Positions 1 to 64,000 of a stretch of 64,000 bases of DNA are shown here, piece after piece. Source of the DNA: Nageia nagi (lineage: Eukaryota; Plantae; Pinophyta); contig JBITNC010000001.1 in NCBI GenBank assembly GCA_050084985.1, positions 133,300,001-133,364,000 of the forward strand, in the 5' to 3' direction. A program made the translations under genes and the position numbers. The stretch's first letter is position 1, and every line of letters begins with the position of its first letter. Below the pieces are notes generated by a model, which was not told the origin of the DNA, ran no database searches, and saw only the letters and a list, made by a program, of their open reading frames with translations.

Positions 1-1297
1 ATATTTCAAACTATGGTGGTCGGTTCTGATGATAAAATGGCGACCAATGAGGTAGGGTCTCCAACGGTGAATGGTATGAATGATTGCAAGCATTTCCTTT
101 TCATAGGTGGATTTAGCCAAGTTTCTACCTGAGAGGGTCGTGCTTGTGGTCACCTTTCTTGCATCAACACGGCTCCAATTCCCACCCTTGAAGCATCACT
201 CTCAATGATGAAGGTCTTAAAGAAATCTGGCATAGCCAATACTAAAGTAGAGCACATGGCCATCTTCAATTGCTAAAAGGATTCTTCGACAGCTGCTGAC
301 CAAAGGCATTCATCTTGAGCAACGCTATGAGTGGGGCTGCAATCTTTCCATAATCTCTCACAAACTTACGGTAGTACCCTATCAATCTGAGGAAACCCCA
401 TAAGCTTTTCAAGGATTTAGGAAGAGGCCAAGTTTGCATATCCTCAATCTTCTGTGGGTCCAACATGACGCCTTCTTTTGAAATAATGTGTCCAAGGTAT
501 TCGAGCTCTTACCGGCCAAAGCAACATTTAGAGCGCTCAGCATACAACTAATTCTCGTGGAGGAGTTGCAAAGTCTGATCTAACTGGGACAAGTGACCCT
601 CCCAAGTTTTGTTGTAAATCAAAATATCATCAAAGAAAACTAAAATAAATTTTCGAAGGTAAGGGCGGAATACCTGGTTCATCAGACTCTGGAAGGTGTA
701 CGGAGTATTAGTAAGGCCGAAAGGCATTACTAGGAACTCATAATGACCTTCATGTGTACGGAAAGCAGTTTTGGGGATGTCTTCCTTGCAAAGCCGAATT
801 TGATGGCACCTAGATCGAAGATCTAACTTGGAGAAATGTTTGGCACCATGGAGTTCATCTAACAATTCATCAATGATTGGAATGGGAAACTTATCCTTGA
901 TGGTCATTTTCTTTAGGGCTCGAAAGTCGATGCACATCCACCATAACCCATCTTTTTTGCAAACCACCAAAATCGAAGAAGAGTAAGGACTCACACTTGG
1001 GCAAATGATGCCAGCTTCTAACATATCTTCCACCAGCTTTTCTATTTCATCCTTTTGGAGACATGAGTAACGGTAAGGCTGAATCTTCGGTGGTTGACTC
1101 CCAGGGATTAATTGGATTGCATGGTCATGGGGGCAATGAGGTGGCAATCTGCAGGGTTCTTCAAAGACTTTAGTATGACAGATGAGTACCTATTGTAATT
1201 CCTATACATCAAGTGAGTCTTGCAAGGCTGGCTAAATAGAAAACAGTTGTCCCACCATTCCCTTACTTCTTTTCTTCAATAGTTTCTCCATGCGATG
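1..1297 (-). pseudogene. RT-RNase H portion of gypsy pol (stops/frameshifts)
   Basis: ORFs 548..1147 (RT) and 266..466 ([17 protein letters not shown]). Confidence 0.92.
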
Positions 1298-1585
1298 TGT
1301 TGTGCCCTACACAACTCGCCCCAAAATTTTGCAATTTTGGGAGCCCTTTGCAACTCAGACCTATCAAGGGTCCAATTAGAGCAACCTTCCAAAGAATCCA
1401 AAATCAAGCCTACCATCCTAGTGTCAAAGTGCAATCATACACCCAATCTCAATCATGTTGCATTGAAGAGTAAAACCCTGGAAAAATGGCTAAGTTTGGA
1501 GACTTCAGGTCGAATCTAGGGGGGACAAGGAAGTCCAAGTCAAGTCCAAACCAAGCAAGTCAGATCCAGGCCACTCCTAGGCCTA

Positions 1586-2532
1586 GCGCATGCTCCAGAA
1601 AGACAAAATCTTGTCTTTCTAAGACATGCGCTCAGGCCAGGAAGACGCCTAGTGTCAAGGTTAAGTCCCAAAACTCGAATTGGGTCACTCCTTGACCCAG
1701 CGCATGCCATGAAAAGACAAAATCTTGTCTTTTTGGGGCATGCGCCAGGCTTAGAGAGATGTCCAGGACAAAACGAAGGCCCAAAACGGACAAGTCAATG
1801 CACACCAAAGCTAGCGCATGTCTCAAAAAGACAATCATGTCTTTTGGGAGCATGCGCCCAAGTCAGGAGGCCACCCAAAAAGACAAAGTGCACTCACCCG
1901 AGGCTAGCGCATACCTCAAAAAGACAAAATCTTGTCTTTTGGGAGCATGCACCAAGCCTAGTAAGGCTTCCGGACAAGATGAAATGGAAAATTTGACTAA
2001 GGCACAGAGCCTCAAAGCCTGGATGCCTCTCAAGCATGACTAGAGAGGCTGGCGCATGCCTCAAAAAGACAAGTTCATGACTTTTGGGAGCATGCGCCAA
2101 GCCTAGGAAGACACCAGGACGAAGCAAGCATGAAAATAAAACTAAGTCCTAAGAGCAAAAAACCAAAACAAGGAAAATCTTACCATCTCCAACCCAACAT
2201 ATGCCTCAAAAAGATAGGATCCTGAATTTCTGGATCATGCACCCAGATTGGAGGAGCTGAAGAAGTTGGAGGGCATTTCGAAAAGACAAAATTTTGTCTT
2301 TTGAAATCATGCGTCGGGCTTGGAGGGGCCCCTGGATTGAGCCAATGGAGAAAAATGAACAAGTTGAATCCCACAAAAGTGCGCATCAAGCAAGATAAAG
2401 TCTCAAGACTGAGCTCTAGGGTCAAGTTGGAAGAAAAGGAGTGCAAGGAAGGCCAACATGGGGGAATGCATTCAACCCCAAGGCTCGCGCATTCTCTAGA
2501 AAGACAAAATCTTGTCTTTTCTGGGCATGCGC
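1586..2532. repeat. Array of 8 dyad-symmetric ~46-bp repeats, GCGCATG-N6-AAAGACAA-AATC-TTGTCTTT-N6-CATGCGC
   Basis: Copies start at about 1586, 1700, 1814, 1907, 2052, 2197, 2271 and 2487, separated by non-identical spacers. Confidence 0.92.
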
Positions 2533-2690
2533 TAGGCTGAAAGACACCCTAAACCGCCCACGTTTGGTCCTGATCGGCTAGAAGCAATGTTTCATGATGG
2601 CACACATCTCGAGGTCAACCACCTGGAGGGCTAGGATGTATCTTTCTCCATAATCTAGCCGAATGGGGTTTCAAGGAGGCCAACTTTAGC

Positions 2691-2698
2691 TATAAATA
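2691..2698 (+). promoter_or_regulatory. TATA box upstream of the LTR-encoded ORF
   Basis: GCTATAAATAC 220 bp upstream of ATG 2911. The same motif sits at the equivalent position in the second copy (34396-34403, minus strand). Confidence 0.65.
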
Positions 2699-2910
2699 CC
2701 AACTTGGAGGCTTCATTTTTCCAAAATTCAAATCACACTCCTCTTCTACACTTGCACCAAAATTGCAGAATTTTGAGTTTGAAATTCGTCCAGAAGCTGG
2801 GAAGGCTTGTGCATGGAGACAAGGAGGCTAGGAAGGTGACATGAAGGTCCTAGGCTAGCAAGAAAGCCAGCGCATCACTTTGGAAGGTCCTTGTCACTCG
2901 TCGAGACATC

Positions 2911-5900
2911 ATGACTAGTTTCAAAAGCAATTCGGCCAAGGACTATATGCGTGATCTGGAGAACATCAGGCATGAGTGCATCATCACTATATACGAGCGA
3001 CAAGACCCCTTGCCCCAAGGGGCTAAGTTCTCCAAGAATGGACTAGCCACTATCGGAGACACAAACTGGCAGAAGGTGGATCCGATGCAAATGAGGGCTA
3101 AGATCAAGAACAAGCCAAATAGCGAGCTGAAACAAGATATTGTCTTCTTCTCTGGGCTCTCAAATTGCACCTTCATCCCATTCATAGTCCCATTCCTAGA
3201 GTTCTGTTTGGAAGTCGGCCAACATTGGAAGAAGGGCGAGAGAGTACTCTATTACATCAAAGGCAACATCATCATGGATTTCAGCCCCGAAGCCATCAAG
3301 ATAGCATTTCAGTGGACTTCGGAGGGCAACTTTGAATACTTGGAGAAGTCGTTGGCATGCTATCGAGACACCAATAGGGCAGCCACAACAATCAAGAGTT
3401 GGATGTTGGACAAACATCATGGCCTAAAGGGCAACGCACTCATCAACGCCCCTCGCTCCCACTTCTATCTGTCCGTAAAATTAATGATCCTCATGTTGTC
3501 GTGAGTTCTTAGGAAGAAAGTTGCATCCAAATTCCGAAAACAGTTCTTCAGCTTCATCATGGAGATTGCTAGAGGGAAGAAGATCAAGTGGAGTAAGGAG
3601 TTGAGTGACAGCATCATGGATCAATTGTTATCAGTGGGGACCACACGCAAATTTTACCTCAACTCTTCCTTGGTATACCTGCTACTTTATGGCAAGCAAA
3701 GACCTACAGCTTCAGGGAAGGCAAACTTGATTGAATGAGGAACGTATGCCATATGGAAGTGCTACCTTAAGTGGAAGATTGAGAGGAGATGGGAAGACTT
3801 CATGATGAAGAGTGATGGATGGGAGCATGAAATTTACAAAGAACTCAAGGGAGAAATTACACTTGCTCAAATCTCCAATTCAGCCTAGGATGCGTTGAGG
3901 AGACATGGAGACTTTTTCATCCATCACCAACATTACTCTTACATTCGCCTCTACGGATAAGTCGTGGAGCCATATCAACTGCCTAGGTATGTGAGCAACA
4001 AGATGCTCCTAATGGAGATGATGAGGCAGTTGACCTACTTGCATGAGCATGTCTGGCAAAAGAAATCAGCCACTTCTAATTTACCGATCATAGTAGGGGA
4101 GCATCAGTGCAGAGCGTGGGCGGATGTGACCTCCATGATAGAGGAGTTGGAGAAGTACAACTTCCAGAAGATGTCAGTCACTAATCACTATGATCCTGAA
4201 CATCGGATTCATGACTTCTATATGAAGTAGAGGAAGAGAGCCTATGAGAATAGGCCACATAGAAATGAAGAGCCATTCTGGAACATCAGTACTGAAATGG
4301 AGGTGAAAAGGATCCGTGCCAGGATGCAAGAAGAGGCCCAGAAGCAACAACAAGAGGTAGAAGCTTCCATTGAAAAGAGATTGTCTCAATCTCGGGGAAG
4401 GAAGCCACAAGAATCCACATCTAGAGTCATCCAAGTTCCACCGACGATTGAGGAACCTGTCAAGCAGTATGCATCCACGCGTGGGAAGAATCCGGTTAAG
4501 TAGGTAGTGCAACAAGTCAAGGAGATAGTTGATGAACATGATATGAGAGAGTTGGAGCATGTGACGACTAATAAGGTGGTGAGATGTGTGAGAAATAGGA
4601 AAGTAGATTCGTCGCCACCCCAGAGGCCGCCAAGAGAAGTAGTGTAACATCCATCACAGACTATCCCACCATCAAGATCAGAATCCTCGGGCCGTTTATA
4701 TGAAGATCACAACATCCCTCAGAGAGAACAAGCAGATAGGCATGGAGATGAGGATCATCAAAGCATGCTTACAGAAGGGGAATATGAAAACATACCTCAA
4801 GATGAGTCTGATGAAGAGCCAGAGAACAAGCATGTAGCCAGTACTGTTCCCGGAGAAGATATTCAGGATGCACGGGGTGATGAAGAGCCGTCATTGGAGA
4901 TATTGAAGGAGGTTCATAATCATACCACCTCAAAGCCTTCAACATCTAGAGGGAAAAGCAAAACCCAACCCCTGAGTCAATACCAAGAAGAGCCCAACTG
5001 AAGAGGGGGTCTCAATCCAGATTATCAATGACACCCGAGGAATCTACAGGAAAAGAAGAAAGGCCTTTGAAGAAAATCAAAGAGAACGACATCACCACCG
5101 CTGAGGCAGTTGTTGAGACCCACCAACCTTTGCCTAATCGTGAGTGGGGTGTAGATATAAACGAATGTTTTGATGTCTTTAACATGGATGTGGCAGAAGA
5201 GTTCAGGCCGAGAGGAACATATGATCATATTGGAGAGAGTTCCACTCGTTTGGAGAGGAGTCAAACTTACATGCACATGACAGATAATGTGGTTTGCATC
5301 AAAACTATAGTGGCTGACAAGGATAACTGTCAAGGCCCAGGAGACTTCAGACAAATAAATCAGATCGTCAAGATAGGCCCCATTGGTGTGACTAGCAGAA
5401 AACATGTGATCGTCTCTAACACTAAGGCAATCGCAAAGGACGAGCTGCTAAAGGAGGAGATAAAAAGCTTGAAGAAAGAGCTGGCCGCCCAAAGGAGATT
5501 GACTCATGAGCTTGAGTCAACCAAAGTACCCACAAAAGAACTAAAGAAAGTCAAACCTCTCAAAGAAGGTATGATGGCAATGAAGCAAGAGGTGGTGGAT
5601 GAGATCTTAACAATATTGAGGCAATTCATTGAGGCCCTTCACAAGGTTTCGTTCGAAGAGAATCAGCTGAAGTACATTGTCACTGAAAGGGCAAGCTACA
5701 CCAGATTTTAGAGTCCCAGCAACCCATGATACTGAGGTATGAGACATCACAGGCTCAAAGGCCCAAGGATACTAAATTCTGCAAGGATTACTAGTTCTAT
5801 TGGGGTGTAAACAGCCAAGTACTTACCCACTTCCAGGAGGTAAGAAAGGAGGTGACCGCGATCAACGATAAGGCCCACTCATGCATTGAGCAGATGGAAT

Positions 5901-6216
5901 TTTAGGTGCAGTACTTGGAGGAAGACACCACCATTCGGGAGGCAGAAGAGGTAGTGGCAGAGGTCAGACACCTCCTTCAGAGCCTGATGATGACGGAAGA
6001 CGTGAACTCCTACCAGTCGGAGAGTAACTTGAGGCACATGCTACGACTCACACAGGGAGGATTGAGATGCAAAAGTTGGTGGACGAGGTCAAGGACAGTG
6101 TTGCTGTTAGCAGGCCGAAGTTCTCGGAGATGTTGTGTGGAGTGGAACTTACGACGAAATTCTTGGTCAAAGGTTTCGAAGACCGAGTTGTGGGCTTGGG
6201 CCCACCATTGGCTTAG
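2911..6216 (+). pseudogene. LTR-encoded ~1,100-codon ORF of unknown function (conserved N-terminal domain, acidic low-complexity middle, coiled-coil-like C-terminus), disrupted
   Basis: ORF pieces 2911..3504, 3964..4230, 4297..4503, 4765..5001, 5028..5711 and 5906.. are collinear with homologous pieces at 34180-30970 and 52986-56444. Confidence 0.85.
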
Positions 6217-7328
6217 CTATTATTTTGTTTTAAATTAAGTTTATTTTTATTTTCCAACTAGACATTTTCAGTATTATTTTATTCCCAAACTCGTGAAGGA
6301 TAAAGATTTGCTCCCAAGAGTTTGGAAGAAATTTTGTAATGCCATGTGGCGCATTTTTAATGAACCTCATTTTATTTCTGACATATATAACTAGGGTTAG
6401 GGCAACACTGTTGATTGCACCTAAAAATCATTTATACCCCATTTTGATTGATTTGTGGGGCATTGACATTTTGATAACTTAATAGAAACTTTGTTGGACC
6501 AAAATTGCTCTTAAGTGTTAAATGTGGTGTATATGGATGCTATTGTGATTTATTTACTTGTTCATGTTGGAATGTGAATGCGAATGAATGTTAGATAGTG
6601 CTATCTATGTTCATTCTATCATTGCTTGATGTTATTTCAATTGACTTGGTACATTTTGTAAACTTCATTGAGGTGGACGAAAGCTTGTTTGCATATCTTG
6701 AGAAGTAGTTGATTGATATCTCATGGATGATATTTCACCATTTGCAATATAGACTTGGTAATCTTGAGGGCTTCACTGATGATGTTCGCCATAGGAACTT
6801 CACCCAAGTCCTTTAGTTGTACCTTGGTCTCACCCTATCACATTGCCTCAACTTCACGCTCCATCCATTCAGCTATTCGTGTTGTTGGCTAGTTGATCAG
6901 ATAGTGGGTGCCTCGAAACTGCATTGAACCCAAGTGAACCAACTTCCGAGCATCCTTACCAGCCCGTGAGCCTGTATGCCCACTATTGCATCCTATTCCC
7001 ACAATCTTTCCACCATCTTTCTTCCTTTTATTTTACACTTTTTTCTGCGGTTTTCGCACCCCAATTTTCCCTTTTCAGCATTTTAGAAACAACCTTGTTA
7101 GAGCCCAAATATAGAACTCGGAGTCCCTTGAATCCACACATAATATTCATGTTAGTGGCAGCTCTAAACATCTCAACCGTATCCTAGGTTATTCTCGCAT
7201 AACTCACGAAGCCAAACCTTTGGGGTAACCAATCTCCATAGCGGGAGGGAGTAACGTCCCTCCACCTGAGGCGTTGGCATTTTTTCTCATTGCTTCAGGG
7301 TAGGAATGAAAAACTCCCCAACACGATG

Positions 7329-12758: not shown

Positions 12759-13370
12759 TGTTGTATCTTACACAACTTGCCCCAAAATTTCGCAATTTTG
12801 GGGACCCTCTACAACTTACATGCGTTTGGCACCTAGTCAATGCAACTTCTCCACGTTCCCAGATGAACTCAATATCATGCCTATTAGCCCATCACCCAAA
12901 TGTGCCCAAACAGCCCAATCCTAGTCATGTCGTGTTCAAGAGTTAAAACCCTCAAAAAATGGCTAAGTCTGGGAATTTAAGTCGAGTTTAGGTGAAACTG
13001 GAAAATTGGTATCGAGTCGGAGCCAAGCAACATGAATCCAGGTCACTCTTAGTCCTGGCGCATGCTCTAGGAAGACAAAATCTTGTCTTTCTACGACATG
13101 CGCTTAAGCCAGGAGGTCACCCGATTTAAATTCCAAGTGCGGAAAGTGGAACTAGGTCACTTCTGGACCCAACGCATGCCATGAAAAGTCAAAATCTTAT
13201 CTTTTTGGGGCATGTGCCAGGCTCAAGGAGGCATCCAGGATGGAATGAAGGCCTGGAAACAATGACTTAGTGCATTTCAAGGCTGGCACATGCCTCAAAA
13301 AGACAAAATCTTGTCTTTTGGGAGCATGCGACCAAGTCTGGAGACTACCAGGAGGGACTTGAGACCCAGA
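12759..13370 (+). mobile_element. Truncated 5' end of a third giant-LTR copy with three dyad repeats
   Basis: Starts TGTTGTATCTTACACAACTTGCCCCAAAAT, like position 1298. Repeats at 13058, 13172 and 13286 (114-bp spacing). Right boundary is approximate. Confidence 0.85.
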
Positions 13371-27600: not shown

Positions 27601-30600
27601 ACAATGCAATACCAGGCCCAAAGGGTTCAACATTGGCTTCCAAGGAGACAAGTAGGGCACACAATGTGCAAAATATGATCACTGAAGGAGATATGCTGCT
27701 ATGGAGTCTCAAACCCCAGATCTGCAAGATACATCAATGGTAGAACAACCACAATCTACCAGATCTATGGATGCCACATTGAAGGGCCTCCTCATAGGCT
27801 GGCTCCAAGCAAAGAGACCAAGTGCAATTTCGGAATACCACCGGATGGATTCAAAGATGATGACCACTATGGACACCTCAATGAAGGCCAAGCCTCACAA
27901 CACAAACAACCACCTCAACCACAAATTAGAAGGTGTTCTAATCCTCCTAAACTCTACCCTAAACTACACGCCCAAGGGTGCTTGATGCCACCAAGTCTTT
28001 AGAAGCTCCGAAGAGAAGAAATAGTTTCAATATCAATATTCAATATATCCTCACAATGATGCTCCAATGCCTTATATAACGCATCTTGGATCTAGATCTC
28101 ACCTAGGAGTTATCACACCAACCTCCAAATCCAACGTTAGCCTCCTAGAGGCCCTCAAATGCCCAAATGTGGGGTTTGGTGTGTTCCCCAATGCTCCTAG
28201 GTGTCATGCATACCCAACGTTAGCCTTCTAGAGGCTACCCAACACCAAATACATATTATCATGGGCCGACATGGGGTCTAGAGTCTTCCCCAAGTGTGGT
28301 GAAGGTGTGCAAGTGTGCAATGATGCTCCCCAAGTCCAACATTGGGGTCATAAGTGTCCATCCATGCCATGTGTTTGGCTATTTGGGTGTTATACAAAGT
28401 CTTGGGATAACCACAATCCAATCGTTGGGATCTCCAAATGCATAAAAATAACAATAAAATAAGTAATCCTATACTTGGAGGAAAACGTCCCACTTTGGGG
28501 CTCATAATGTGGGTCCAATGGACCATTATTATTCTATCCCAAGTTACTACAAATGCAATAAGACAAATTATTTACAAAAGGGATATCAAAGATCCCAAAT
28601 TTCCTCAATTTTGCTCAAAAGAGGATGTTACAAGCAACGCCCCTGATGGTAACAATCTTGTGTTCATTGCATTGATATAGAATAAAGATTTGCATGTGGA
28701 TGTTCCATCTATGACTAATACATTAAAATTATGTCATAGTGTGAAATGTCTAACTCTCTTGCAGAAACAAACCAGCCAAACTCTTGCTCATTAATGACTT
28801 GGGGTGCTTGAAAGGCACTTTGAAAACTCAACCAACCTTTTATCCTTTCATATATTTTCCTGGCTCTTCAATAGCTTTCAACCACTCAAGTATTATTCAA
28901 AAGCATGTGATTACTACACCGCTTTGACCAAATATTTTGAGATTTGATCATTATATAAAAGGGAATGAAGTGCAAACAAAGAAAATCATGAATACTCGCA
29001 AGTTTTTTAACATTTTTGGCATCCATGGTTATGAAATTTACCTAAATGTCATATGAATATTTTCTATATACTAAAATTATTGATTTGAATTGAAAGTAGT
29101 GCCAAGAATCATTTGACAGCATCCAAGCTCTTCTGCTCTGCTCTTGAGGAGATAAAACCAGCATTGTAATTTTTCTTTTTGAAGTGTTTTGGGTCTGTGA
29201 TTATAAAATTTCCAAAGTTGTCATTTGAATATTTTCTATATACAAAACTATTAATCTGAATTGAAAATATTGCCAAGAATCATTTGACAGCAACCAAGCT
29301 TTTTGGCTCTGCTCTTGAGGAGATAAAGTGGGTAATGTAATTTTTCTTTTTCCAAAGATAGTCACCAACTTCAAACATTTAGCCAGAATATATCATACTG
29401 AATGCACTAAAGTGGTTTGAAATTGCATGAGTTGGAGGGACGGCCTCTAAAGAGTTTCTCCTGTCACTTTCCTATAATCATAAGCTTTTTAAGAGTTTTG
29501 GCTGGTATGGTTATGAAATTTCCAAAAAAATAAGTAATTTGGATAATTTTTATGTCAAATAAGGTAAAAGTAAAACTATTGATTTGAATTCAAGGTATGG
29601 TCAAGAATTAATTGACAGCATGCCAAGCTCTTTTGCTCTACTTTTGAGGAGAGAACGGGTATTGCAATTGCTCTTTTTCCAGAGCTCATCACCAACTTCA
29701 AGCATTTCACCTCTAAAAAGTTTCTCACAATAATCTTACCCAGTTTGGAATTTGAACACAATAATCGTACCCAGAAATTGAACAAAGTTGAAGAATTTTT
29801 CATGCATTACAAGCCAATCTTCTATTCTCAAGATATAACTAAGGAAACTGTTGGGCGCTTTTTCTTTCCTACCTTGCTAATAGGAAATTGAACTTGCAAG
29901 GCCTGCAGAAAGACACCAACACCTGAGTGATAGGGCATGACCCCTACCCACTACAAGGACTAGTTACCTCAAAGGTTTAGTGATGGGTGTGCGAGAGGTT
30001 GCTCAGGTGACCAGTTGAGATGTTTCAAGCTATCTCCAACTCAAATACAATTTTTTAACCAAGGACTTGAAGGGTCCCTATCTCCAAAAATTGGAGTTTC
30101 TCAAAAGAAAAAGGAAAATGTGGTTGCAAAAGCTATGCAAAAAAATTAAAAAAATAAAAGTAGAAGGTTGAGAAGACAATGATATATGAATTCAGCACAT
30201 GAACTCAATGTTCTCATCGACTGGTAGAGGTTTTAAGACTCAACTCTCATGGGCTTGTCATGGGTTCCACGCACTCCGAATCCAACTTGTTGGGCAACAA
30301 CACGAATGACCTAACAAGAGGAGCTTGAAGCTAAGGCGATGGAGGTAAAAGGGGTGAAATGTAGGTAGACCTTGATCAAGGGAGTGAAGTTCCTATCCTA
30401 AGCGACATATGGGAGCCATCTTAAAGTGTACGAGTCCTAAATGCAAACTATGAATCATTACATAACCATGAGTTACTTGAAGTACTTCTAAGAATATTCA
30501 AGCATTCTTTTGTCCACCTTAAACCAAATTTACAAAATGCACCAAGTATTCAAGACAGCATCAGAAAGTAACATCCATTCACATTCATAGTTTCAAATGA

Positions 30601-33600
30601 AAGCATTCACAATTCAATTACTTGGAGTATATCACATTCACAAATTGAGAAAACTTGTGAGCTTGAAAGTATTAAGTAAGTTGTCCAATTTGCAAAATGT
30701 CTAATCTCCTACAAATGAGCCCAAATGGGCTATAAATAGTTTTTTTGAAAACCCTAAATGTTGCCCTACCTCTAATTTCAAAATACGAGAAAATACAAAT
30801 GGACAAACCACAAATTGCCACATGGCATTACAAAATGTCTTCCACGCTTATGGGAGCAAATCCTCTTCCATCACAAACTTGGGAAATTAAATAACAAATA
30901 TAATAAAAGTATTTTATCAAAATAAGTGTCTTTTCTTGGAAACAAAACAACAAACTATGTAAATTGTGACTAAGATGAATGCGGGCCCAAGGCCTCAACA
31001 TGTCCCTCGAAATCCTCATCCAAGAATTTGGTCGTGAGTTCCAATCCACGCAGCATCTCTTATAGCTTTGGCCCGTTTCTAGCAATGCAACGTCCAACCT
31101 CTTCAATCATCTTCTGCATGTCGTTCTTCCAAGCATGAGCTATCAACAGGTGTCTCAAGTGATTTCCAATCTGATAGGTGTCGATGTCATCAGTCATAAT
31201 CAAGCTGTAAAGGAAGTGTCTAACTTTTGCCACTACCAGTTCCTTATCTCTAATGGTGGCATCATCATCTATAAACTTAACCTAGACATCCATCTGAAGG
31301 CTGGTGTTAGCCTTATCATTAAGTGCCTCGACCTCCTTCTGCACCTAGAAATGAATAGCTATCTGATTGACAACACCCAAGTAGAACCAATAATCCTCGC
31401 AAAACTTCACATCCTCGAGCCTCCGATCCTGTGTCATTTCAAATTTTATTATCATTGGCTTTCAGGAATCCAAAATTATGAGAAAGTTGGCTCTCTCCAC
31501 TACAATGTCTTTCAACTTTTGTTCCTCAAGTGTGACCCTCTGCAATGCACCAATGAATTGTTGAACCACCACCAAGACCTAATCAATCACCTCTTGTTTT
31601 ACTACAATCATACCTTGAGGGGTTTTATCTTTCGAAGCTCCTCTGTGGGTACCTTAGCTGACTCTAGCTCTCTAGTCAATCTCTTTTGTGCAGCTAACTC
31701 CTTTTTGAGGCTTTTTATCTCCTTTTCTTTCATCATCCCATCTTTGGTAATTGCCTCAGTGTTGGATATGATTGCATGTTTCCGACCAACCAAACCAATA
31801 GGACCCGTATTGATGATCTGGTTTACCTTCATAAGGTCTTCAGGTCGTTGGGGATTCTCCTTATCTGCGATTATAGTCTTGATGTGAATCGCGTTCTTGG
31901 CCAAATGCACATAAGTCTAGGTCTTACCCAGGCGAGTGGAGCTTTCTCCAATCTGATCATTCTCTTCTCTTACTCCAAACTCCTCCCTGACATCCATGTT
32001 AAACACATTCAAACACTCCATATTAACTCCCCATTCATCTGTAGGTGATGGTTGATAAGTTTCAACAATTGCTTCCTGAAAGATGGTGGTGCCTTTCCTG
32101 GCCCTTTTCAAGGGTCTCACCTCTTCTTCACTGTGCTCTTCAGAAGCCTCTATTGTTCGAAACTGAGAAGTTCCTCTTCAACTGTGCTCTTCTTTGTACT
32201 GTGTCTAAGGTTGGTCCCTTACCCTTCTCAGTGGATGGTTCTCAAGCAACAGGATTCTAGACTAACTTCACTATCTCTAAAGATCTATCTTCTTGTTGTG
32301 TACTCAGGATGTTGTCACGTTGTGTTGCATTCACTTCTTGTTCACCGTCTAAATCTCCTACTTCTCCTTCCTCTTTACTATCATCGGGTTCATACCTAAG
32401 ACGAGAGGATGAGGACCCAGATGGTGCAACAACAGGTGATGGTCCTGCAGCTTCTTCTCTAGGTGGTCTGGACGGTGAGGATGGATCCTTCTCTTTGTTC
32501 CTAACACCTCACCATCTTGTCTGTGGCCACACGTTCCAGTTCTCTCACATCATGCTCATCAACAGTGTTCTTGACTTGTTGTACTACCTATTCCGCTGGA
32601 TTCTTGCCATGCATTGATGCATATTGTTCGACTAGTCCTTCAACTGTGGGAGGAAACTGAGTGACCCTGGAGGTGGACTCTTGTAGTTTTCTTCCCTTCT
32701 GCTATGACAATCTCTTGTCGATGGTGGCTTCAACAAGTTGTTGTTGATCATGGGCATCCTTGTGCATTTTGTCATGGACCTTCTTCATTTCTACCTTGTT
32801 GCTCACATTCCAAAAAGGCTCTTCTTCTCTAAGTGGTTTATGTTTGTATGTTTTCTTCCTCTCCTTCATGTAAAACAGGTGAATCCTATGGTCGAGATCA
32901 TAATGATTGGCGGCAGGCATCTTGAAGTTGAATCTCTCCAACTCCTCCTCATGGTATCAATGTTTGCCCAAGCCTTGCACTAATATTCTTCCACTATGAT
33001 CGGCAAGTTTGAAGTAGCCGATTTCTTCTACCACACCTTTTCGTGCAAATAGGCCAATTGCTTCATCATCTCCATAAGTAGCAATCTGTTGCTCACAAAA
33101 CTTGGCAATTGATATGGTTGCACAGCTAACCCATCGATTCTAATGTACAAATAGTATTGATGATGGATGAAGAAGTCCCCATGCTTCATCAACACATCCT
33201 AGGCTGAGTTAGAGATCCTAGCCATTGTGATTTCTCCTTTGAGCTCCTTGTAGATCTCATACTCCCATCCATCGTTCTTCATGATGAAACTATCCCATCT
33301 TCTCTCAATCTTCCATTTGGGATAGCACTTCCAAATGGCATATGTTCCATTCTCAATCCATGCTACTTCTCCTTTAGTCGTGGCCCTATACTTGTCGTGG
33401 AGCAACATGTATAACAGGTAGGAATTGAGGTAGAATTTATGAGTGGTGCACAATAGATGATAACTGATCAACGATTGTGTCACTCAAGACCTTGCTCCAC
33501 TTGATCCTCTTTTCTCTAGCCATCTCGACAATGAAGCCAAAGAATTCTTTTCTGAACTTGGAAGCATCTTCTTTCCCAAGAACTCTGGACAACATTAAGA

Positions 33601-36600
33601 TCATCAACTCAACTGAAGGGTTGAAATTGGAGCAAGGGGCATTTGTGAGAGCATTCCCCTTTAGTCCATGGTGTTCATCAAGTATCCAATTCTTGATTAC
33701 ACCGGCATCCCTGTGAGTCTCTTGGTAGCATGCTAGTGACTCTGCTTCACTGTACTCGAAATTTCCCTCAGAAGTCCATTAGAATGTCGTTTTGATGGCA
33801 TCAGGGCTGAAGTCCATAATGATGTTTCCTTTGATGTCACGAAGGACTCTCTCTCCCTTTTGCTATTGATGACCGACCTCCATACACAATTCAGGAAAAG
33901 GTGTTGTGAATGGAACGAATGCACAAGTGGAAAGCTCGGAGAAGAAGACAATGTCTTCTTTGAGGTCACTGATTGGCAACCCCCGTATTTTCTCCCTCAT
34001 TTGCATAGGGTCAACGTCTTGCCAATCTGTATCTCCAATGGTAGCAAGACCGTTCCTCAAGAATCTAGCCCCCTAGGGAAGGGCGTCTTGTCTTTCACAA
34101 ATGGTGATGATGCAATCTTGTCTCATTTGTTCGAGGTCCCTGGCAAATTCTTACACCAAATTGCTCTTGGAAGTAGTCATGATGCTCAAGCTTGCAACAA
34201 GATCTCCCAAAGGTGATGCATCAGTTGTGGTGAAGGCAACCAACATTGGATTGGCTTGTCTCCCAAATGCTTGCGCAAGCCCTAGGATGCTATGTGGTGA
34301 AATTCAAACTCAAAAATTTGTAATTTCTTACAATTTTGGCGCAAAAGTAGAAGAGGAGTGCGATTTGAATTTGAGAAAACGAGGTCCCAAGCTTGTATTT
34401 ATAGCTGAAACTGGTTTCCAACAAACCCTAGTCGGCTAGGTCAAGGAGAGAAATTCATCTTAGCCGTCCATCTGGCTTACCTCGAGATGTGTGCGTGCAC
34501 CAATTTTCATGTCTAGCCGGCCAGGACCAAACATGGGGATTCTAGAGCTCCTTCTAGCTTGGTTCATGCCTAGAAAAGACAAGATTTTGTCTTTCTGGAT
34601 CATGTGCTAACCTTGGGGGTGAGTGCACTTCCCACGTTGACCCTCCTTGCTTGCTTGTTTTCTCATCTTGACCCTGAAGCTTGTCCTGGGACCTGAACTT
34701 GCTTGATTTTTGCTCTTTCTGGGGTCTAGGCTTGTCAAATTTCACCTTTAAGCTCAACTTGGACACTCCCCAAACTTGGTTCTTGATTCAAAAAGTCATA
34801 TTCTTGTCTTTTTGAGGCATGCGCCAACCTCTCATGTCTGCCCAGTTTGAGCGCATGGTTTAAAAAGTCAAGTTTTTGGCTTTTTGAATCATGCGCCAGC
34901 CTCTGAATGTGGCCAGTTTGGCCTGTTTGCAAGTTCTTGCCTCCGTGGCTTAACCAAATTTTCATGATTTTTCATTCCTGGAGGCTTCCTGGGTTTGGCG
35001 CATGGTCCAAAAAGTCAAAACTTGTCTTTTGAAATCATGCACCAGCCCTCCTAGAGGTGCTGGAGCTGAACTTGGGGTTCTGGGCTTCATGCCTTGGCCA
35101 ATTTTTCATCTTCAAACAAATTGGAAGCCTGTCTAAGCTAGGCACATGATTAAAAAAGAAAAGATTTTGTCTTTTTGTGGCATGCGCCAGCCTCCTGGAA
35201 GCCTCAAGTTCACTTCTTGATCTTCAAACTTGTCATATTTCTCCTCCCACCCTAGTCGCATGGTTCAAAAAGACAAGATTTTGTCTTTTGAAATCATGCA
35301 CCAGCCTTGAAGTGTCCTTGCCTTGTCTTTTTCAAGCTTAATTTCGGTCCAATCTACTCCTTGTCCTTGACGCATGCTCCAGAAACACAAGATTTTGTCT
35401 TTTGGAGGCATGCATTGGGCTTGAAAGTGGCCTAGATTGCCTTTTCGAGTCTCAACTTTAGTCTGGATGGCTCCCTGACCTAGTCGCATGTTTCAAAAAG
35501 ACAAGATTTTGTCTTTTGAAATCATGCATCAACCCTAAGAGTTGCCCAGTTTGGCTTGACTCTATCCCGACTCATCCTGGGCTCCACTAGTTCACCTAAG
35601 GTCAACTTTTAGTTTTCTAGACTTTGCCATTTTTGAGGAATTTCAGTTTTTCAACTTGATATGACTAAGTCTAAGCAAAGAATGAGGCTTCAACCTGTGG
35701 GACTCGACAGTGAAGCTAGGTCTTGCGACATCACTTGGACTAGACAAGACAACAACATGACAAAGTGTTCACATAAGGCGTTGAGGGGGAAGGGTCCCCA
35801 AAATCGCAGGATTTTGGGGCATGTTGTGTTTTAGTCACAACAGAAACCATGGCAGCCATTTAAGTTGCGTGATGTGATCCAATGTGAGAAGTCAAGCACT
35901 TAGCAAGCATCAGCCATTTCACAAGACAACTTGCTTATCGCATTTTTATGAAAGACAAGAAATCCATGTGACTGGATGGATTCCCTTACAGTATACAAGC
36001 ACTTTTGAAATTTGTCAGTAAGTGAGTTCATCAACAGAAGGAGATCTAAATTTGTACTGAAAGCTAGCAATCCTGAACTCATTACAAGTTTGAGATCAAT
36101 TATGTGTGTTTGTTTGTTTCACATTATATTGTATCCTAGTATTAATTATACAGACTTTCATCATCTATTTAAGCGCTATTTAGTTATGAAAAGACACCTT
36201 GTATGTGTGCACAGTGTACCCTTGTTTCTGTCATCTTTCATCTATCATTGCACCACTTTCCTTATATATGATATTTGAAACTGTTTCATATATTCATGTT
36301 CACAAAGAGATTGTCCAACGACAAGTGGCATGAAAGCATTCATTGCCGAAACTTATCTTTATGCACGAGTGTTGGCTTGTAGCCATGGTCAGTGACAAAA
36401 GGGTTTGACTTGTTGCCCAATTTCTTTGTAGCTCATATTTTGCAGTCTGTGATCTCTCCTCTTAGTTGGTGGCATAAAGAACTTCAGAATATACATAGTT
36501 GTTTTCCTTAGATTGATAAACCTTGTCCCGTATCTTCTACATTAATATTTTCCCTGCCTTGTTTTCAACTCCCAGATTATTTGCACATGTAATCTACAAA

Positions 36601-47275: not shown

Positions 47276-49945
47276 TTGGGCCCCCCCAAATACCCAACGT
47301 TGGATTAGATGGGCCTGGGATGACTCCTAGGTGAGTTCCAAACACAAGTAATGTATAAATAGACATTGGAGCTTCAGTATTGGACAGCCATTATTGATCA
47401 TTATTACACTTATTCTTCTACTTCATCCGGTGGACAAGACCTTAGCGGAGCACTAAGCATATTCCTTAAGTGGAGCACCTAAGAGGGTAGTCAAGCGTTG
47501 AGATGCTGATTATCTACAACATTAGTGGAGCACCTTTCCCCATCCGATGGCATCCCGAGGGTTTACTTCTATCGTTCGGTTGGTTAGCTAGATTTTGAGG
47601 AGGGCTCCTTCAGTGGAGAGGATTCAAAATCTGAGGGAGTGAATCTATCCCATGGTTCTACAGTTGTTCAATGTTGAAGATTTCAGAGTGTTGTGCCCTA
47701 GTTGGCTCCCTTGAGGCCAACGACTACCCATTGGGCTTGGTATTGTATTTGCTACCATTGTATATCATTCATGTTGCCAAAGGGCATTTGGATCTCATGC
47801 TTATGTGTATTGCTTCATCTTGTGCATGCGTTGGATCTTGATGATTGTATATGTTTGTGATTATCATTCGAAGGCATCTTAATGTGTGAGGGTTTGGATT
47901 TTGCATGTATGAGCTAGACGTTGGCATTATGAGATTGTATTCGTTGATGTATGCTTGCATATGCTAGACATTAGCATTTTGGGTATCTGAATGTTTAATG
48001 TTAATGCCCTAACCCTAATGTTGCATGCTTGAGGGTTTGTTGTGTTGTGTATGATGCCCTAGACTTGACGTCAGGGCTTGATGATCCTATATTGCTAGTG
48101 CTAGCTTGAATTTTAATTTTGGATCATCGCAAAAGATAATCACATAACCCAATTCTAACATATGCTTGGAATTGAATCTGTTCATTGACTATATTGTATT
48201 AGACATGTAAGATATACAACATGAATGGTCCTTATATTTACCTCTTACAAGTACACACTACTAGAAGAAAAGCACCTACATCTACAAAATTTTATCAACC
48301 ACATAAAACTGCATATATTAGACAATATAAACAACAATACCATTTCTTAGATGTCACACTACCACATCCATGTTACTTATTAAATTACAGAGGCTCTTTA
48401 ACATTTTGGAATTTGTAATTACCCTTCATAATTTTCATGAGTTGGAAGATAAGGTAGGTGTAAACAATATCTTATGTGTTTGTAAAACAACTTGATTTGT
48501 GGATTAGTGAGAAATGTATACCATTCTAACCCATAAATAATGTTGTTTCTCTTCAAGGAATTTACTTACACTTTATTTGGAGTGGGACAGTTAAACTCGA
48601 AATTTTTAGGAAAGTGAAATGCAATTACAACGTCTTCCCTATCCCTATTTTATCACTAAAGCCAGTTTTTAAAATGAGTGAATCTGGCTTTGACCCTTTT
48701 TCCTTCCCAAATAAGTATAGATTTCCTTTTTTATATCATGCAAGCTGAATATTCTTAAGATACAAAAATCTAATGTTTGTCCATGTCAGGGGAGTTGGAG
48801 AAGTAATGGGAACACTCCACACCCTACATGGTAGAACAAGTAGAAAACCTGTGGATAAACAAGTGTTGTCCTGGGTGACTTTGACATATTAGATACCTCT
48901 GGTCGTGGCAACTAAGCCAAAGGAGGCTCCCACAAGGGTGGTTTTTGCCATATCAAAATAAAAAGATACAAGAATATAATATTAATGGATGTGTTTCCTA
49001 AAACCAGCTCAACAATAAACTACTAATATCACTACACATTGGAACTCTCGCTTTCTTAATAATTAAATTGCTAAAGCTTTTAATTTTACTAAATTTGGAT
49101 CAACTCTTCAACTATATTTTTTTCTTAAATGATTGCTCATAGTATGTATACGAGATTGCCATTACCAACAGTTTGTCTTGGGTTTTCCTTCTAATAGTTT
49201 CTTTTCTAATTTCCAATACTGATTGAAAAACTTTGATTATTGTGGGGGTACTTCTTAGGTTGGCCATCCTTATATCTTAATGTTGCATATCAAGAGATTT
49301 TGTTGAAAGAATGGAGTATAGTGCTCATTGGCGATAACTAAAGAAGAAGAAATTATTGAAAATTGGAGTCTTGGACAGATTCACAATTAAATATTTGTCT
49401 ACTGCTCTAGTTATTGCCCACGAACATTACACTATGTTCAATTGGCATTTTTAGATTCTCCTAAGAAGGATTCTTATTGTAGGATTTCCATGATGGATAT
49501 AGTTGTTTGTAGTTGATTAGGCCAGTCTCTTGCAACATGCTCTGATTTAGTATGCTCGATCCGTCTCACATTGTTTGGTGGTTTCAGGCACAACCTTTAC
49601 AACTACCATATTTCCTCTTGTGTCAAATTCAACAAGGGTTTCTAAAGATGCCTCTTCTTGCTAACGTCTATCCTCGTAGGGTCAAAAACACTTTATGATC
49701 CTTTTCAGCATTTGAAATTAAATGGTAATCTATCACCACATAATTGGCCACCCATCATGCAGAATTGATTGTCCAAGCAATTTAACCTAATTCAATATTT
49801 AGCACAATAGTTTGTACGTTATACATTCCTTTTTGCATTTTTCATGAGCTCATGCCATTCCTTAAACATTTGCATCCTTTTATTAAAAACAAGGTGTGGA
49901 CGAAGCAAAACCTGCCTCATTTTTTTTCAAACTTTGGGGACTCTC

Positions 49946-51141
49946 TATGACATCCCCCTTGCATGATTGTAAGTAATTATTGAATCCAACGGATTCCCCT
50001 TGTAATATATTTTATAATTGCATTGTACTTTCATATTGTAGCTTGGGATAGAAGACTTAATGGGTCAATGGACCCCATTGTGAGCCCCAAATGGGACATC
50101 TCCCTCCAAAGCATAGATTAGGTGTTTTATTTTACTTGGAGATCCCGATCTTGATTGTGGGAATCCCAAGGTCTGTTTTACACTTAGATGAATGGATGAG
50201 CACTTGTATATATGTGCCACCATTAGGCAGACTCCTAGACTCCCACGTTGGCCCATTATGACACCTAGATTCCATGCATGGCTCCTAGACCCACATTGGG
50301 CATGCATGACACTCCTAGACCCCCACGTTGATATTTATGGCACTCCAGACCCCCACATTGGCATGCTTGACCCCAAGGCACCCACGTTGGGCATTCTAGG
50401 CCCCCAGGAAGCTAACATTGGGGATTAAGGAGTTGAATGATGACTCCTAGGTGAGATCCAAACAGAGTTGAGTGTATAAAGAGACATTGGAGTCTAATTG
50501 TTGGATGTATCTGATTATACTATTATCTCTTGATACCATCCTGTGGACACAAGTCTTACCAGCGCTAAGCAATCCCTTAGGTGCAGCATCTAGGAGGGCT
50601 ATCAAGCTGAGGAATCATGATTGTCTACGGCATTAGTGCAGCACCCTTGCCCATCCAGTGGTATTTTGAGGTTGAGCTTCTACCATTTAGTTGGTCGCCA
50701 GGATCAAAGGAAAGCTCCTTCGATGCAGAGGATTCAAGTTCTGAGGGAGCGAGGCTGTCCCATGGTTCTACTTGTCCGTCTAGCATTGAGGATACATGAT
50801 TTTCCCTAGTTGGCTCCATGGAGGCCAACGTCCAGCTTTGGGAGCTAGGTATTGTATTGTTGTGACATTCATATCTTCGATACAGTCATTGGGCACTTGG
50901 ATCTCACTTTTGTGTTGTGTATACTTCTCTATTGGCATCATTTGATTACTTTGACATGTATGTGTTTGAATGAGCCAAACGCTGGCATTGTGGGATTGTG
51001 TTGATTGATATCTGCTAGTTGTAGCCACACGTTGGCATATTTGCATTATTGGGATTTGATTTGGATGTCCTAGGCCAGACGTTAGGGTTTATTGAATTGA
51101 ATTTGCTTAATTGCACTTGAGTTGGTGTTTGGATCCTTACA
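49946..51141 (+). mobile_element. Solo LTR (~1.2 kb) inserted near the 5' end of the giant Tat LTR
   Basis: T(A)TGACATCCCC...GGATCCTTACA ends, near-TSD CTCTC/CCCTC, related to 9794-10996 and 42229-43506. Confidence 0.82.
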
Positions 51142-51396
51142 CCCTCAGCCTAAGAATGAAGCCGAGAAGGTTCGCACATGGAAAGAGTATTTCCGGACGA
51201 TAATGGAGAGATGAACTAATCAGAAAAGCCCGAAGTGCAACTTTAAAATTCACTCGAAATACTTGCTTACAACAGACGAAATACTTTCTAAGTATCCACT
51301 CATAGAACCAAGAATGAAGAGATACAAGCATCCAAGGGAGTTCAATCATGTTTGAAAAATGGGCAAAATCATCAAGATCACACATTAAAGTGATGT

Positions 51397-52510
51397 TCGC
51401 ATGGCCGAGGAAAGATGCATTTTCATTTGTCCTAGAAAGAGCGACTGTAACTTGCATTACTCTTCTAAAATGGACACCCCTTTCATTGACACATGGCATC
51501 TGCAAAAACCACTATAAAAGCTCAAGAAGGGAGATAAAACGGCTAATTCATACTTCACTTCGACCCCCTCAAGGTGGTCACATGGTTTGGAAAAGTCACA
51601 TTTCCATCTTTCGAAAACGATGCGACCACCACCCTCAATCCAGTTTTGGAGCTCGAAAATCAGCTAAGTGTTTCAAACTCCTCCTCCAAAGGTGTTTGCA
51701 TGGTTTATAAAAGATGCATTTTTATCTTTCAAAAGGGATGTGACCACACTTACCTAGACGTTGGATGCACAACATGAAGCTCACTTTGATTCCATTGGAC
51801 CTTCATTCTGGTCGCTCGGCTAGAGACACTTGGCAAGAAAAATTGTTATAAAAGAAGGAAGGGCATTCATTTTTGCCTTAGCTGATCCAATGTAGTGCAT
51901 CTAAAGGTGGTCGCATGGTTTGAGAAAGTTACAATTTCATCCTTGTAAAACAAACCAACCACCTCATTTCTTACATGTTAGCCTCCAAAATTAGCTCAGT
52001 ACTTAGCCATAAGCATTTTCAAGGTGTTCGCATGATCCAAAAGGGTTACATTTTCATCTTTTAAGGGACATGTGACCACCCCTTTCAAGCGTTCTTGGTC
52101 CAATTCAGTTGTTTGCATGATTTGAAGAAGTTACATTTGCATCATTGTAGAGGCACGCGATCACATCCTTTGAATGAAAATGGACATTTGTTGAGGGTTT
52201 ATCATTAGTCCATCAAAACGATGCCACTTGGCAACCCAAAAAGCTATAAAACGTAAAGGGGACTTAGTTCATCATTGCAAATCATTTGTCCTCTTAAGGC
52301 TGGTCACATGGTTTCCATGTGTTACATTCTCATCTTCCTTGAGGCGTGCGACCGTCCCTTTTTGTTCTCACATCAAGTTAGATGGCCCATATGCATTTAC
52401 CATCATATCATTTAGTTTTTGAATTAGTCTTATCCTACAATAGTCAACTTAAATGCATATGGTCACATGGTTCCAAGAATATAGGCATCCATCTTTCAAA
52501 AATGTGTGCC
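51397..52510. repeat. Array of ~8 dyad-symmetric ~48-bp repeats (TCGCATG...AAAG(A/T)T(G/A)CATTTTCATCTTT...CATGCGA-like)
   Basis: Copies start at about 51397, 51578, 51696, 51911, 52028, 52113, 52304 and 52463. Confidence 0.75.
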
Positions 52511-52985
52511 CATTCAAGTTGCATTGATTTAGTCTTTATCAATGCACTGTTGTCTTAAGACACACCCGTACATCTATGAAAGCAATCTTGTGTTTGTTTT
52601 TAGTTAGTTAGTTAGTCATTTATGTCGTCCGTAGTCCTTTCATTTTGTTATGTACCATAAATTCAACCTTCCTTGTCGCATCATTTGCCCAAGATAGAAA
52701 TTTGGTACGACCAGGTCCCTCAAGCCTTGCTTTGCATTAAGTTGGGTACCACAAGGTGGCTAATGGGACATATGCATGCATTTACCATTTAAGGCATATT
52801 TTGAACATTGCATGTGAGGAGGCCGACCACCTTTCGTCATAAACATTTACTGTTTAGTTTGCTTCCATTTGCATGTCTCATCATTAAGGCATACAGGTTT
52901 GCCAGGCATTGTACACCTCCTGCATCACTCCACCACGCCCGTACAGTCGAACCAGTGTCAGTCAAGTCCAGTCGCTACGAACCCG

Positions 52986-55900: not shown

Positions 55901-56444
55901 GAATTTTCAGAACCATGAGCATGCCATTCAAAACATAAGGAGGATGTCTGTAGGACAAGTGGGCCGAATATAGTATTGCCAAGAGTTCACCTACCATCTA
56001 TGTTGGCTAAGGTTCGTGGCAGAAGAATGCGCCAACCTCACTAAGGCTAAAGCCGATCTGTTGTTCACTCTAACTTTTCAACTGAGTCAATTTGTGCAAC
56101 CAATCAGTTTCATCAATGAGGACAGAAGCGCAAGGCGAGTTGAGTTCTTGATCCAAGAGGTCCAGAATGTATTACGTGAGCTCATCTTCACAAAAGATGT
56201 AAATCTGTTGAGGGCTGGAACTCACATTGAAAATCAGCAAAACCTAGCCGTTTGGAATTTTCAAATGGAGGCTACTTCTCAATTCATCTTAGATTTCCAC
56301 AACAAAAGGGATGAAGAATTGTTAGGCGCACTTGCCATAGGACTTGCTAAGGTTAGGGCCTTCTTCGATGACAAGTCTCATGGGATTCCTAAGGGTGTCT
56401 TTGTTGCCGCTCACGATGAAGTTGTTGGTCCCACAGAGGGATGA
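52986..56444 (+). pseudogene. Divergent homologue of the LTR-encoded ORF, disrupted
   Basis: NIRDTNW, ILDFSPQGTKEAF, KIKWSKVISDSLLFQL...RFYMNSYLVFLLLHGK, WRAYPKW...NDGWEYQIYK and YLLPRYASNRLILME align with the other two copies. Start codon is uncertain. Confidence 0.82.
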
Positions 56445-57724: not shown

Positions 57725-57741
57725 TGGCGCTAGAAGGAGGG
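57725..57741 (+). other. Primer-binding site complementary to the tRNA-Asn(GTT) 3' end
   Basis: TGGCGCTAGAAGGAGGG is the reverse complement of ...CCCTCCTTCTAGCG-CCA, the plant tRNA-Asn 3' end as I recall it. Confidence 0.78.
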
Positions 57742-57871
57742 CCTACTCCGCTTTTGTCTTCAATTTTTGTTTCTTTTATCTAAAGCAAGTTGGAACCCTT
57801 CCCATCTAATTCGAATATCTTCGATTCGAACCTATTTAATTCACCACAAGTGTACACCCAAGCTAGGAGAG

Positions 57872-63800: not shown

Positions 63801-64000
63801 CCTGATAGGAGTAATGAAAAAATTGCTTGAAAAAAATCAATAGGATTGGCTTAGCAATCTCAAATATGCATTATGGGCCGATCAAATCAAAATCAAACTG
63901 TCTCTTAGGATGAGTCCCTTCCAATTAGCGTATGCCATTAAACCTGTTTTCCCTACACATCTTAAGATAGCCACTTTACAATTCCTGAAGGACTATGCTA
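57872..64000 (+). pseudogene. Tat gag-pol (gag, protease, aRH, RT, RNase H, integrase), many stops/frameshifts
   Basis: PR MVDFGAIRNVMP. aRH WILRFNGS...GAGV...TYNTA (about 60845-61210). RT SSWVANIVP...RVCIDFR, MPFGLINAGATFQ, YMDD. INT GYYWP...CHIC, WRLDFVG, YPQGNGVAESTNK. Confidence 0.93.

Follow-up and report, generated by a model that had tools for sequence, protein, structure and literature searches.

Long terminal repeats of a conifer TatII-type retrotransposon very probably enclose a ~1,100-codon gene, with a possible VANC-like product

Genes that lie inside a long terminal repeat (LTR) are known from retroviruses: sag of mouse mammary tumour virus and lentiviral nef lie in or overlap U3 and are duplicated with the terminal repeat, sag taking up ~1 kb of a 1.3-kb LTR. 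Cassandra elements (terminal-repeat retrotransposons in miniature) carry a 5S-like RNA in their LTR, an insert that is non-coding. Here we study a stretch of 64,000 nucleotides from Nageia nagi (contig JBITNC010000001.1, positions 133,300,001 to 133,364,000; the whole stretch is called the window below). It contains three repeat units of one family (units 1 to 3, Table 1), and we find that these are very probably LTRs of 6-6.6 kb with a gene of ~1,100 codons inside them. In contrast to sag, nef and Cassandra, this is a 3.3-kb gene in a 6-6.6-kb LTR, and it may lie in R/U5.

The closest described plant systems place their extra open reading frames (ORFs) differently. Reviews put the extra ORFs of plant elements in the internal region (PMC7264820, PMC11963269), and no comparable arrangement is described in the relevant passages of PMC13468544, PMC6431247, PMC5751070 and PMC11728184. 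TatII elements share with ours the position of an additional RNase H, gymnosperm relatives, a 5-bp target duplication and a tRNA primer site (putative in our element), but unlike the units studied here they have no ORF placed inside an LTR in the passages of the three papers that cover them (PMC6317226, PMC4408406, PMC10508981). Among the 27 TatII elements of Neumann 2019, forward extra ORFs lie 5' of pol in 23% and 3' of it in 26% (PMC6317226), and the section of Ustyantsev 2015 on lineage II reports that no extra ORF was found (PMC4408406). Such near-equal 5' and 3' shares would fit a gene carried in both LTRs, and may hide the arrangement that we describe. The 2019 survey accepted LTRs of at most 6,000 bp and LTR distances of at most 20 kb (PMC6317226); because units 1 and 3 exceed the 6,000-bp limit, elements of this kind have probably been missed or split in gymnosperm annotations. 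Ogre/TatIII elements (PMC4408406, PMC6431247) resemble ours in belonging to the Tat clade, in having LTRs of up to 6.5 kb and in encoding a globular domain followed by a coiled coil, and the Ogre elements of lineage IV also have a sense accessory gene upstream of gag. Their gene is internal and present once per element, whereas ours is part of the repeat and precedes the primer site, and Pfam PMD gives no significant match to it. Rice Retrosat2/RIRE3 (PMC3485330) has an LTR of >3 kb, a TATA box near the 5' end, an ORF0 before gag-pol and many solo LTRs (429, as against 162 complete copies); it differs in being of another lineage, and its ORF0 is treated as separate from the LTR. Earlier work on Tat, Ogre and Athila elements leaves the function of their extra ORFs open (PMC7264820, PMC4408406). 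Our literature search, whose coverage stopped short of subscription journals (Steinbauerova 2011, the Ogre papers), found no precedent for a plant element with a protein gene inside its LTR; the gene-in-LTR variant of TatII is apparently real and undescribed.

Units 1 and 2 have the boundaries of inserted LTRs. As a preliminary description of the window had proposed, both run from TGTTG to CAACA between perfect 5-bp target-site duplications, so that TG...CA ends and a 5-bp duplication are found in both of the units that are fully bounded; the chance probability is ~0.001 for each matching 5-mer duplication. The insertion of unit 1 breaks the pol frame of a different retrotransposon; when the two flanks are translated separately, this frame is in register with exactly 5 bp duplicated. 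The two units align to each other at ~70% over 3.0 kb and at 67% over a further 1.4 kb. We find neither the primer-site motif of the Tat element inside them nor any match when they are compared with the Tat gag-pol, which agrees with the earlier statement that they lack gag, pol and a primer-binding site. The first and last kb of either unit share no terminal repeat (best E 0.01-1.5, at most 30 nt). An element with short terminal repeats of its own, the alternative raised in the preliminary description, was rejected on these grounds: there are no shared end repeats and there is no internal primer site.

Further copies share the same ends. A second metagenome scan confirmed 4 of 591 candidate stretches (contigs L001-L004), while a first metagenome scan and a viral scan gave zero relatives. 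L001 and L002 begin at the same 5' boundary as the units, with unrelated flanks, and L002, L003 and L004 stop at the same 3' boundary. Within the window there is also a fourth copy, a homologue of the 5' part only that starts at 12759 and was absent from the earlier list. Two of the contigs have features of their own. At 2817-2849 of L002 a unit-3-like copy ends and, 31 bp on, a unit-2-like copy of like orientation starts; the gap holds neither a primer site nor an internal region. L003 contains the 3' end of a unit in two copies that are inverted to each other (1-102 and 921-1907), and has a tail piece facing a forward gene copy; this inverted duplicate is probably an assembly or amplification artefact, and its end is counted once in our tally of 3' ends.

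What ties the family to a retrotransposon is unit 3. It had been described as a divergent homologue that ends in the same terminal sequence and is followed 10 bp later by a primer-binding site and Tat gag-pol. The CAACA end, the primer site 10 bp on and the gag-pol next to it all stand; the start, however, reads TGTGG, and the span includes a nested 1.2-kb LTR. The first 50 nt of unit 3 align with the 5' ends of five other copies, for which reason we dropped the idea that the start at 49895 belongs to another family. Its 1.3-kb tail is collinear with five other tails up to the final CAACA, and the scores of its last 100 nt are 54 with unit 1, 45 with L004 and 41 with L002, values that are reached by 0, 1 and 1 of 2,120 background windows. 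No target duplication surrounds it (CAAGG vs GCACC). From this order, the homology and the missing duplication, unit 3 is most simply a 5' LTR, with units 1 and 2 as solo LTRs that belong to sister subfamilies. The earlier reading of the units as solo LTRs of the Tat lineage of Ty3/gypsy is thereby supported by their ends, their duplications, unit 3 and the four contigs.

The gag-pol attached to unit 3 has the domain order of TatII. A protease lies at ~60015 (a weak match, E 0.011) and an additional RNase H at 60865-61200 (RVT_3, E 2.5e-16), with reverse transcriptase (RT), RNase H and an integrase zinc domain detected downstream, so that the additional RNase H sits between protease and RT. 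The primer motif after unit 3 starts with TGG and putatively corresponds to tRNA-Asn, although searches did not identify its tRNA; among viral contigs the motif occurs at 5 loci, 0 of them in a tRNA gene. An additional RNase H between protease and RT defines the order of TatI and TatII, TatII being found in gymnosperms and TatI in club-mosses, and TatII elements have a primer site for tRNA-Asp or tRNA-Asn and a target duplication of 4-5 bp (PMC6317226), with which the TGG start and the 5-bp duplications observed here can be compared. The same primer motif with its TGG start is seen at 140-170 of L006, a 5.8-kb contig of the viral collection that is possibly an unrelated retrotransposon. Read by eye, there is also a splice-donor-like sequence at 57645-57655, near the end of the unit 3 LTR, and a pyrimidine tract ending in AG at 57747-57786, between the primer site and the gag ATG; together they could give rise to a gag message from which the primer site or the LTR gene is missing.

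We also consider that the units could be a one-gene, non-autonomous TG...CA element moved by the Tat integrase, with unit 3 beside a primer site by accident or recombination. The two fully bounded copies do stand alone, no polypurine-tract junction has been found, the 10-bp gap between the CA end and the primer site exceeds the usual few bases, and L002 has two units 31 bp apart with no internal region. We nevertheless regard this as highly improbable. A 5' LTR, unlike an insertion, should have no target duplication around it, and unit 3 has none; the primer site is preceded by no other LTR; and movement of this kind would require terminal repeats, a primer site or a transposase, all of which are missing from the units. 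In addition, very long LTRs favour the formation of solo LTRs in angiosperms, though not in Picea (PMC5751070).

Table 1. Coordinates of the repeat units and their features in the window
Feature	Coordinates	Strand	Remarks
Unit 1, solo LTR	1298..7323	+	6,026 bp, TGTTG...CAACA
Unit 1 target-site duplication CGATG	left 1293..1297, right 7324-7328	+	perfect 5 bp
Unit 1 palindrome array	1587..2533	.	8 palindromes of ~46 bp, 70-220 bp apart; candidate binding sites
Unit 1 sense TATA box	2690..2698	+	~220 bp before ATG, ~1.4 kb from 5' end
Unit 1 decayed gene	2911..6216	+	~1,100 codons; frameshifts near 4960, 5690, 6047
Unit 1 tail	6217..7323	+	AT-rich after stop, TATA-like site 6430-6436, conserved terminal ~100 nt
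Fourth copy, 5' 0.6 kb only	12759..13350	+	3 palindromes
Unit 2, solo LTR	29849..35842	-	5,994 bp, TGTTG...CAACA
Unit 2 target-site duplication GAAAC	29844-29848 and 35843-35847		perfect 5 bp
Unit 2 decayed gene	30980..34180	-	68% amino acid identity to unit 1, N-terminal half
Unit 2 TATA box	34404-34396	-	
Unit 2 palindrome array	34561..35528	.	8 palindromes; 5 of 8 trained the matrix
Unit 3, putative 5' LTR of TatII element	49895..57714	+	TGTGG...CAACA, ~6.62 kb net
Nested 1.2-kb solo LTR of another family	49946..51141	+	target duplication CTCTC/CCCTC
Unit 3 palindrome array	51394..52513	.	8 palindromes of ~53 bp, different related motif; 7 of 8 trained the matrix
Unit 3 TATA-like sites	51512 and 52244		
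Unit 3 decayed gene	52953..56444	+	start codon not identified
Primer-binding-site motif	57725..57741	+	10 bp past unit 3 LTR end
Decayed gag-protease-additional RNase H-RT-RNase H-integrase	57872..64000	+	ends at window edge

Now we consider the content of the units, beginning with the gene. The preliminary description gave each unit one long ORF, and this we can refute: in unit 1 even the longest open pieces reach no more than 216 and 253 codons, and the ~1,100 codons emerge only by comparison with L004, a frameshift-free relative. L004 holds a single frame over 912 codons (6 stops), which together with the N-terminal 190 codons of L001 gives ~1,100. Measured in this way, the gene of unit 1 consists of 4 pieces and 1,101 codons with 3 frameshifts and 10 stops including the terminal one (~9 internal), that of unit 2 of 6 pieces and 1,070 codons with 5 frameshifts and 18 stops counted, some of them in overlaps between pieces, and that of unit 3 of 817 alignable codons with 9 stops. 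In unit 1 the protein has an N-terminal folded domain (~codons 45-425), a low-complexity charged linker and a helical C-terminal part, in which a coiled-coil-like region can be read by eye. The unit 3 protein is 40% identical to those of units 1 and 2 in the N-terminal half and 20-25% in the C-terminal part, and the C-terminal half of L004 is 52-67% identical to units 1 and 2. Despite the decay, the codon pattern indicates that the N-terminal half of the gene has evolved under strong purifying selection. Between units 1 and 2 the differences in this half are 0.18, 0.16 and 0.49 at codon positions 1-3, and the ratio of nonsynonymous to synonymous substitution rates (dN/dS) falls within 0.06-0.20 in 7 of 21 pairs; synonymous sites are saturated in the remaining 14.

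A profile search gives 112 relatives of the LTR gene at E<=0.001; of ten that were looked up three are named, from Taxus and Cryptomeria, and further Taxus gene models are related, one of them a 28-member cluster and two fused to host genes. The Cryptomeria and Taxus models P0102, P0127 and P0148 fuse pieces of the gene to a mannosyltransferase, an arabinokinase and a cyclophilin-RRM protein, and such fused models are either annotation chimeras or real exonisation. Pfam contains no significant family for the LTR gene or its relatives, and a sequence search of the PDB with its protein was blank. A scan of 5,019 candidate proteins of 1,202-3,430 residues, a range that misses a 1,100-residue protein, gave 0 relatives. 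The ESM Atlas returned low-score leads only, Transposase_32 and ATHILA (0.81), and no usable named match when searched with a distant relative.

Upstream of the gene lies a set of palindromes. A repeat array had been noted for the units, and each of them does contain one; the repeats are not tandem, however, and consist of dispersed palindromes of ~46-53 bp. A family matrix trained on 5 unit 2 sites finds 8 matches each in unit 1, unit 2 and L002, 7 in L001, 2 in the partial L003 and 3 in the fourth copy. It finds 0 in unit 3, and neither the remaining 43.5 kb of the window nor any of 20 shuffles has a match. The motif of unit 3 behaves in the same way, with 8 matches in unit 3, 0 in units 1 and 2 and 1 borderline match in the fourth copy. 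Every complete copy has 7-8 family-specific palindromes upstream of the TATA box. Since the sets of motifs are specific to subfamilies whose proteins have also diverged, motif and protein thus appear to change together, as far as the two subfamilies compared can indicate.

The array lies immediately upstream of the TATA box, with the gene downstream, and the TATA box itself, already reported in the preliminary description, is conserved in all five covering copies of the unit 1/2 subfamily. A second TATA-like site lies ~900 bp from the 3' end and is antisense in 5 of 6 copies, with unit 3 alone having it in sense. At 6390-6445 of the window, and in five other copies, this TATA-like site stands ~200 bp after the stop in a layout like that of a promoter pointing back into the gene, beside motifs that are site-II-like and telo-box-like. 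Because the conserved sense TATA box stands upstream of the gene and behind an enhancer-like array, the gene would be in R/U5 unless the tail contains a second promoter. From this layout we lean slightly towards R/U5; a location in U3, with the genomic RNA starting at the tail TATA-like site, has a chance just short of even. The earlier suggestion that the gene entered U3 by a shift of the boundary between polypurine tract and LTR is unsupported in that form, the sole conserved sense TATA box being upstream of the gene. Long R and U5 regions have been predicted for rice Retrosat2 (PMC3485330).

Position at the enhancer, just upstream of the TATA box, also raises the question of whether the array belongs to an ordinary regulatory circuit. 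In such a case the architecture would be the same, but the protein would be an ordinary sequence-specific transactivator or a chromatin factor of the LTR that does not itself act on silencing marks, comparable to foamy-virus Tas or the Tax protein of human T-lymphotropic virus, or else the palindromes would be sites for host factors and the protein would act elsewhere. The arms of the palindromes contain CATGC, which we take to resemble the RY element bound by host B3 factors, and no methylation footprint is seen over the arrays. Accessory proteins of Retand have moreover been proposed as DNA-binding regulators (PMC11963269). Against this, the motif varies with the protein subfamily, which is unexpected for a fixed host factor, and the only fold match of the protein is to an anti-silencing protein. 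We consider this explanation unlikely.

We compared two AlphaFold models of the N-terminal domain (mean pLDDT, the predicted local distance difference test, 73.7 and 80.8) with known structures. In an exhaustive structural alignment, DNA-bound VANC21 (9lnk_A) is for both models the sole chain of 48,161 with Z>=5. The first model aligns to it with Z 5.8 over 220 residues, the root-mean-square deviation (rmsd) being 5.0 and rank 2 having Z 4.7 (a single helix); the second aligns with Z 6.8 over 239 of 362 residues at an rmsd of 4.8, rank 2 having Z 3.6. VANC proteins bind short motifs that their own element contains as amplified repeats, and they lift silencing (PMC5735166). They are structurally homologous to the PMD protein MAIN (PMC13547354), and proteins of the PMD type bind motifs in promoters, including a palindromic one, and counteract Polycomb silencing (bioRxiv 2024.09.27.615353). 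Extra ORFs with PMD and coiled coil are known in TatIII and Ogre (PMC4408406). The likeness of our gene to VANC of VANDAL (Mutator) elements and to MAIN/MAIL (PMC5735166, PMC13547354, bioRxiv 2024.09.27.615353, 9LNK) lies in the predicted fold and the coiled coil, and with VANC there is the further likeness that a gene of the transposon lies next to repeated non-coding motifs which are specific to the family and diverge along with the protein. VANC, however, belongs to eudicot DNA transposons with motifs of 8-9 bp in tandem repeats, whereas here we have the LTR of a gymnosperm retrotransposon, palindromes of 46-53 bp, 6-7% identity, and binding and activity that are predicted. The predicted VANC-like fold and the palindrome array are what the models and motif scans add to the preliminary description.

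The resemblance to VANC could also be due to a chance likeness in the arrangement of helices. If so, the gene would still be in the LTR, and its product would serve the particle or its RNA, as a scaffold, in nuclear import or as an integration tether. The Z below 8, the blank results of Foldseek and of sequence profiles, and the long charged linker with the coiled-coil-like region would all suit this view, as would a gene in R/U5, which would come first among the cistrons of the genomic RNA, as Ogre ORF1 does. On the other side, the match takes in 239 of 362 residues and has a Z that exceeds that of rank 2 by 3 units, and a PMD-type protein is the commonest extra ORF of Ogre elements (57%; PMC6317226). 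On this evidence a particle or RNA-handling role is improbable.

Taken together, the reading that we prefer is that the units are solo LTRs of a gymnosperm TatII element, whose LTR gene encodes a predicted VANC/PMD-like protein that would bind the array and protect the promoter; we give it an even chance. An anti-silencing role of the VANC/PMD type for the gene product, as suggested by the models, is tentative and somewhat doubtful. Several observations weigh against the reading. On the side of the element, a polypurine tract is seen before 0 of the 6 5' ends and the primer motif after only 1 of the 6 3' ends, in a count over all copies, and no second LTR copy is seen within the window, which ends inside integrase. 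Unit 3 belongs to a distant subfamily (40% identity), gag-pol is not seen beside any close relative of units 1 and 2, and the 3' end of unit 3 matches unit 2 weakly (score 25, equalled by 21 of the 2,120 background windows). None of the copies seen has an intact gene. On the side of the protein, the match to VANC21 is below the aligner's caution line of Z 8, with an identity of 6-7% and an rmsd near 5; the two models share most of their alignment rows and hence are not independent; and Foldseek found zero matches for the models in PDB and BFVD at E<=0.001. Pfam PMD (PF10536) is touched by only 1 of 42 relatives, at E 0.023 and below the cut-off, and DUF1985 by 0 of 42. Over the arrays there is no clear relief from CG/CHG loss, the observed/expected ratio of CG being 0.29-0.53 as against 0.34 in the rest of the window. 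Finally, a shared fold shows no function, and proteins of the MAIN type also promote the silencing of transposons (PMC5418596). Given a Z under 8 and models built on shared data, we treat the VANC21 match with moderate confidence, as a strong lead and not proof. The tallies of ends, which include no direct view of a 3' LTR, fit a family that is present mostly as solo LTRs; we infer that the LTRs are paired in the intact element, with the 3' LTR beyond the end of the window.

If the gene lies in the LTR, reverse transcription would copy it into both LTRs, and an intact element would be ~21 kb or more with two copies of the gene. Recombination between such very long LTRs would leave solo LTRs that keep the array, the TATA box and the gene. 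A 3.3-kb gene inside the LTR would therefore change the meaning of a solo LTR, the usual route of removal leaving the gene behind, although the earlier statement that a full gene cassette is left behind goes too far, every copy seen being decayed. The protein, probably a dimer or oligomer through its coiled coil, would recognise the palindromes, with protein and motif diverging together by subfamily. Binding would keep the LTR promoter open in a positive feedback, to which young solo LTRs could contribute in trans before their decay. The ends of the element may in this way have contained a defence of its own against silencing by the host.

Carried to its end, this scheme makes the LTR a self-contained anti-silencing module of operator array, promoter and VANC-like gene, in which solo LTRs, commonly regarded as dead remnants, go on supplying a trans-acting factor that unsilences their family. 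This full version is rather unlikely. If it is true, reverse transcription doubles the module and recombination between LTRs cannot remove it, a VANC-like system exists in a retrotransposon and is common to conifer lineages, and the long persistence of Tat elements in giga-genomes has a candidate explanation. One 6-kb unit unites the gene, a possible target motif that varies with it and the structural lead to VANC, which makes a direct test of binding and anti-silencing possible.

The window holds other elements as well. A complete-looking LTR element of 5.9 kb lies at 42229-48132, with LTRs of ~1.3 kb that are 94% alike over 943 bp. Its TGG primer motif is at 43509, and it contains tandem arrays of 30 bp as well as a Ty3 capsid domain (E 1.6e-10); because no RT domain is detected, it is probably non-autonomous. 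Relatives of its LTR lie at 9794-10989 (minus strand), at 49946-51141 and in L001. At 14895-15865 and 19922-20846 there are direct repeats of ~0.95 kb, 84-88% alike with ~4 kb enclosed, which probably mark another LTR element. A 264-bp tandem duplication at 23666-24195, its copies 93% alike, lies inside an ORF of 259 codons that has no Pfam match and by eye resembles the end of a long interspersed nuclear element.

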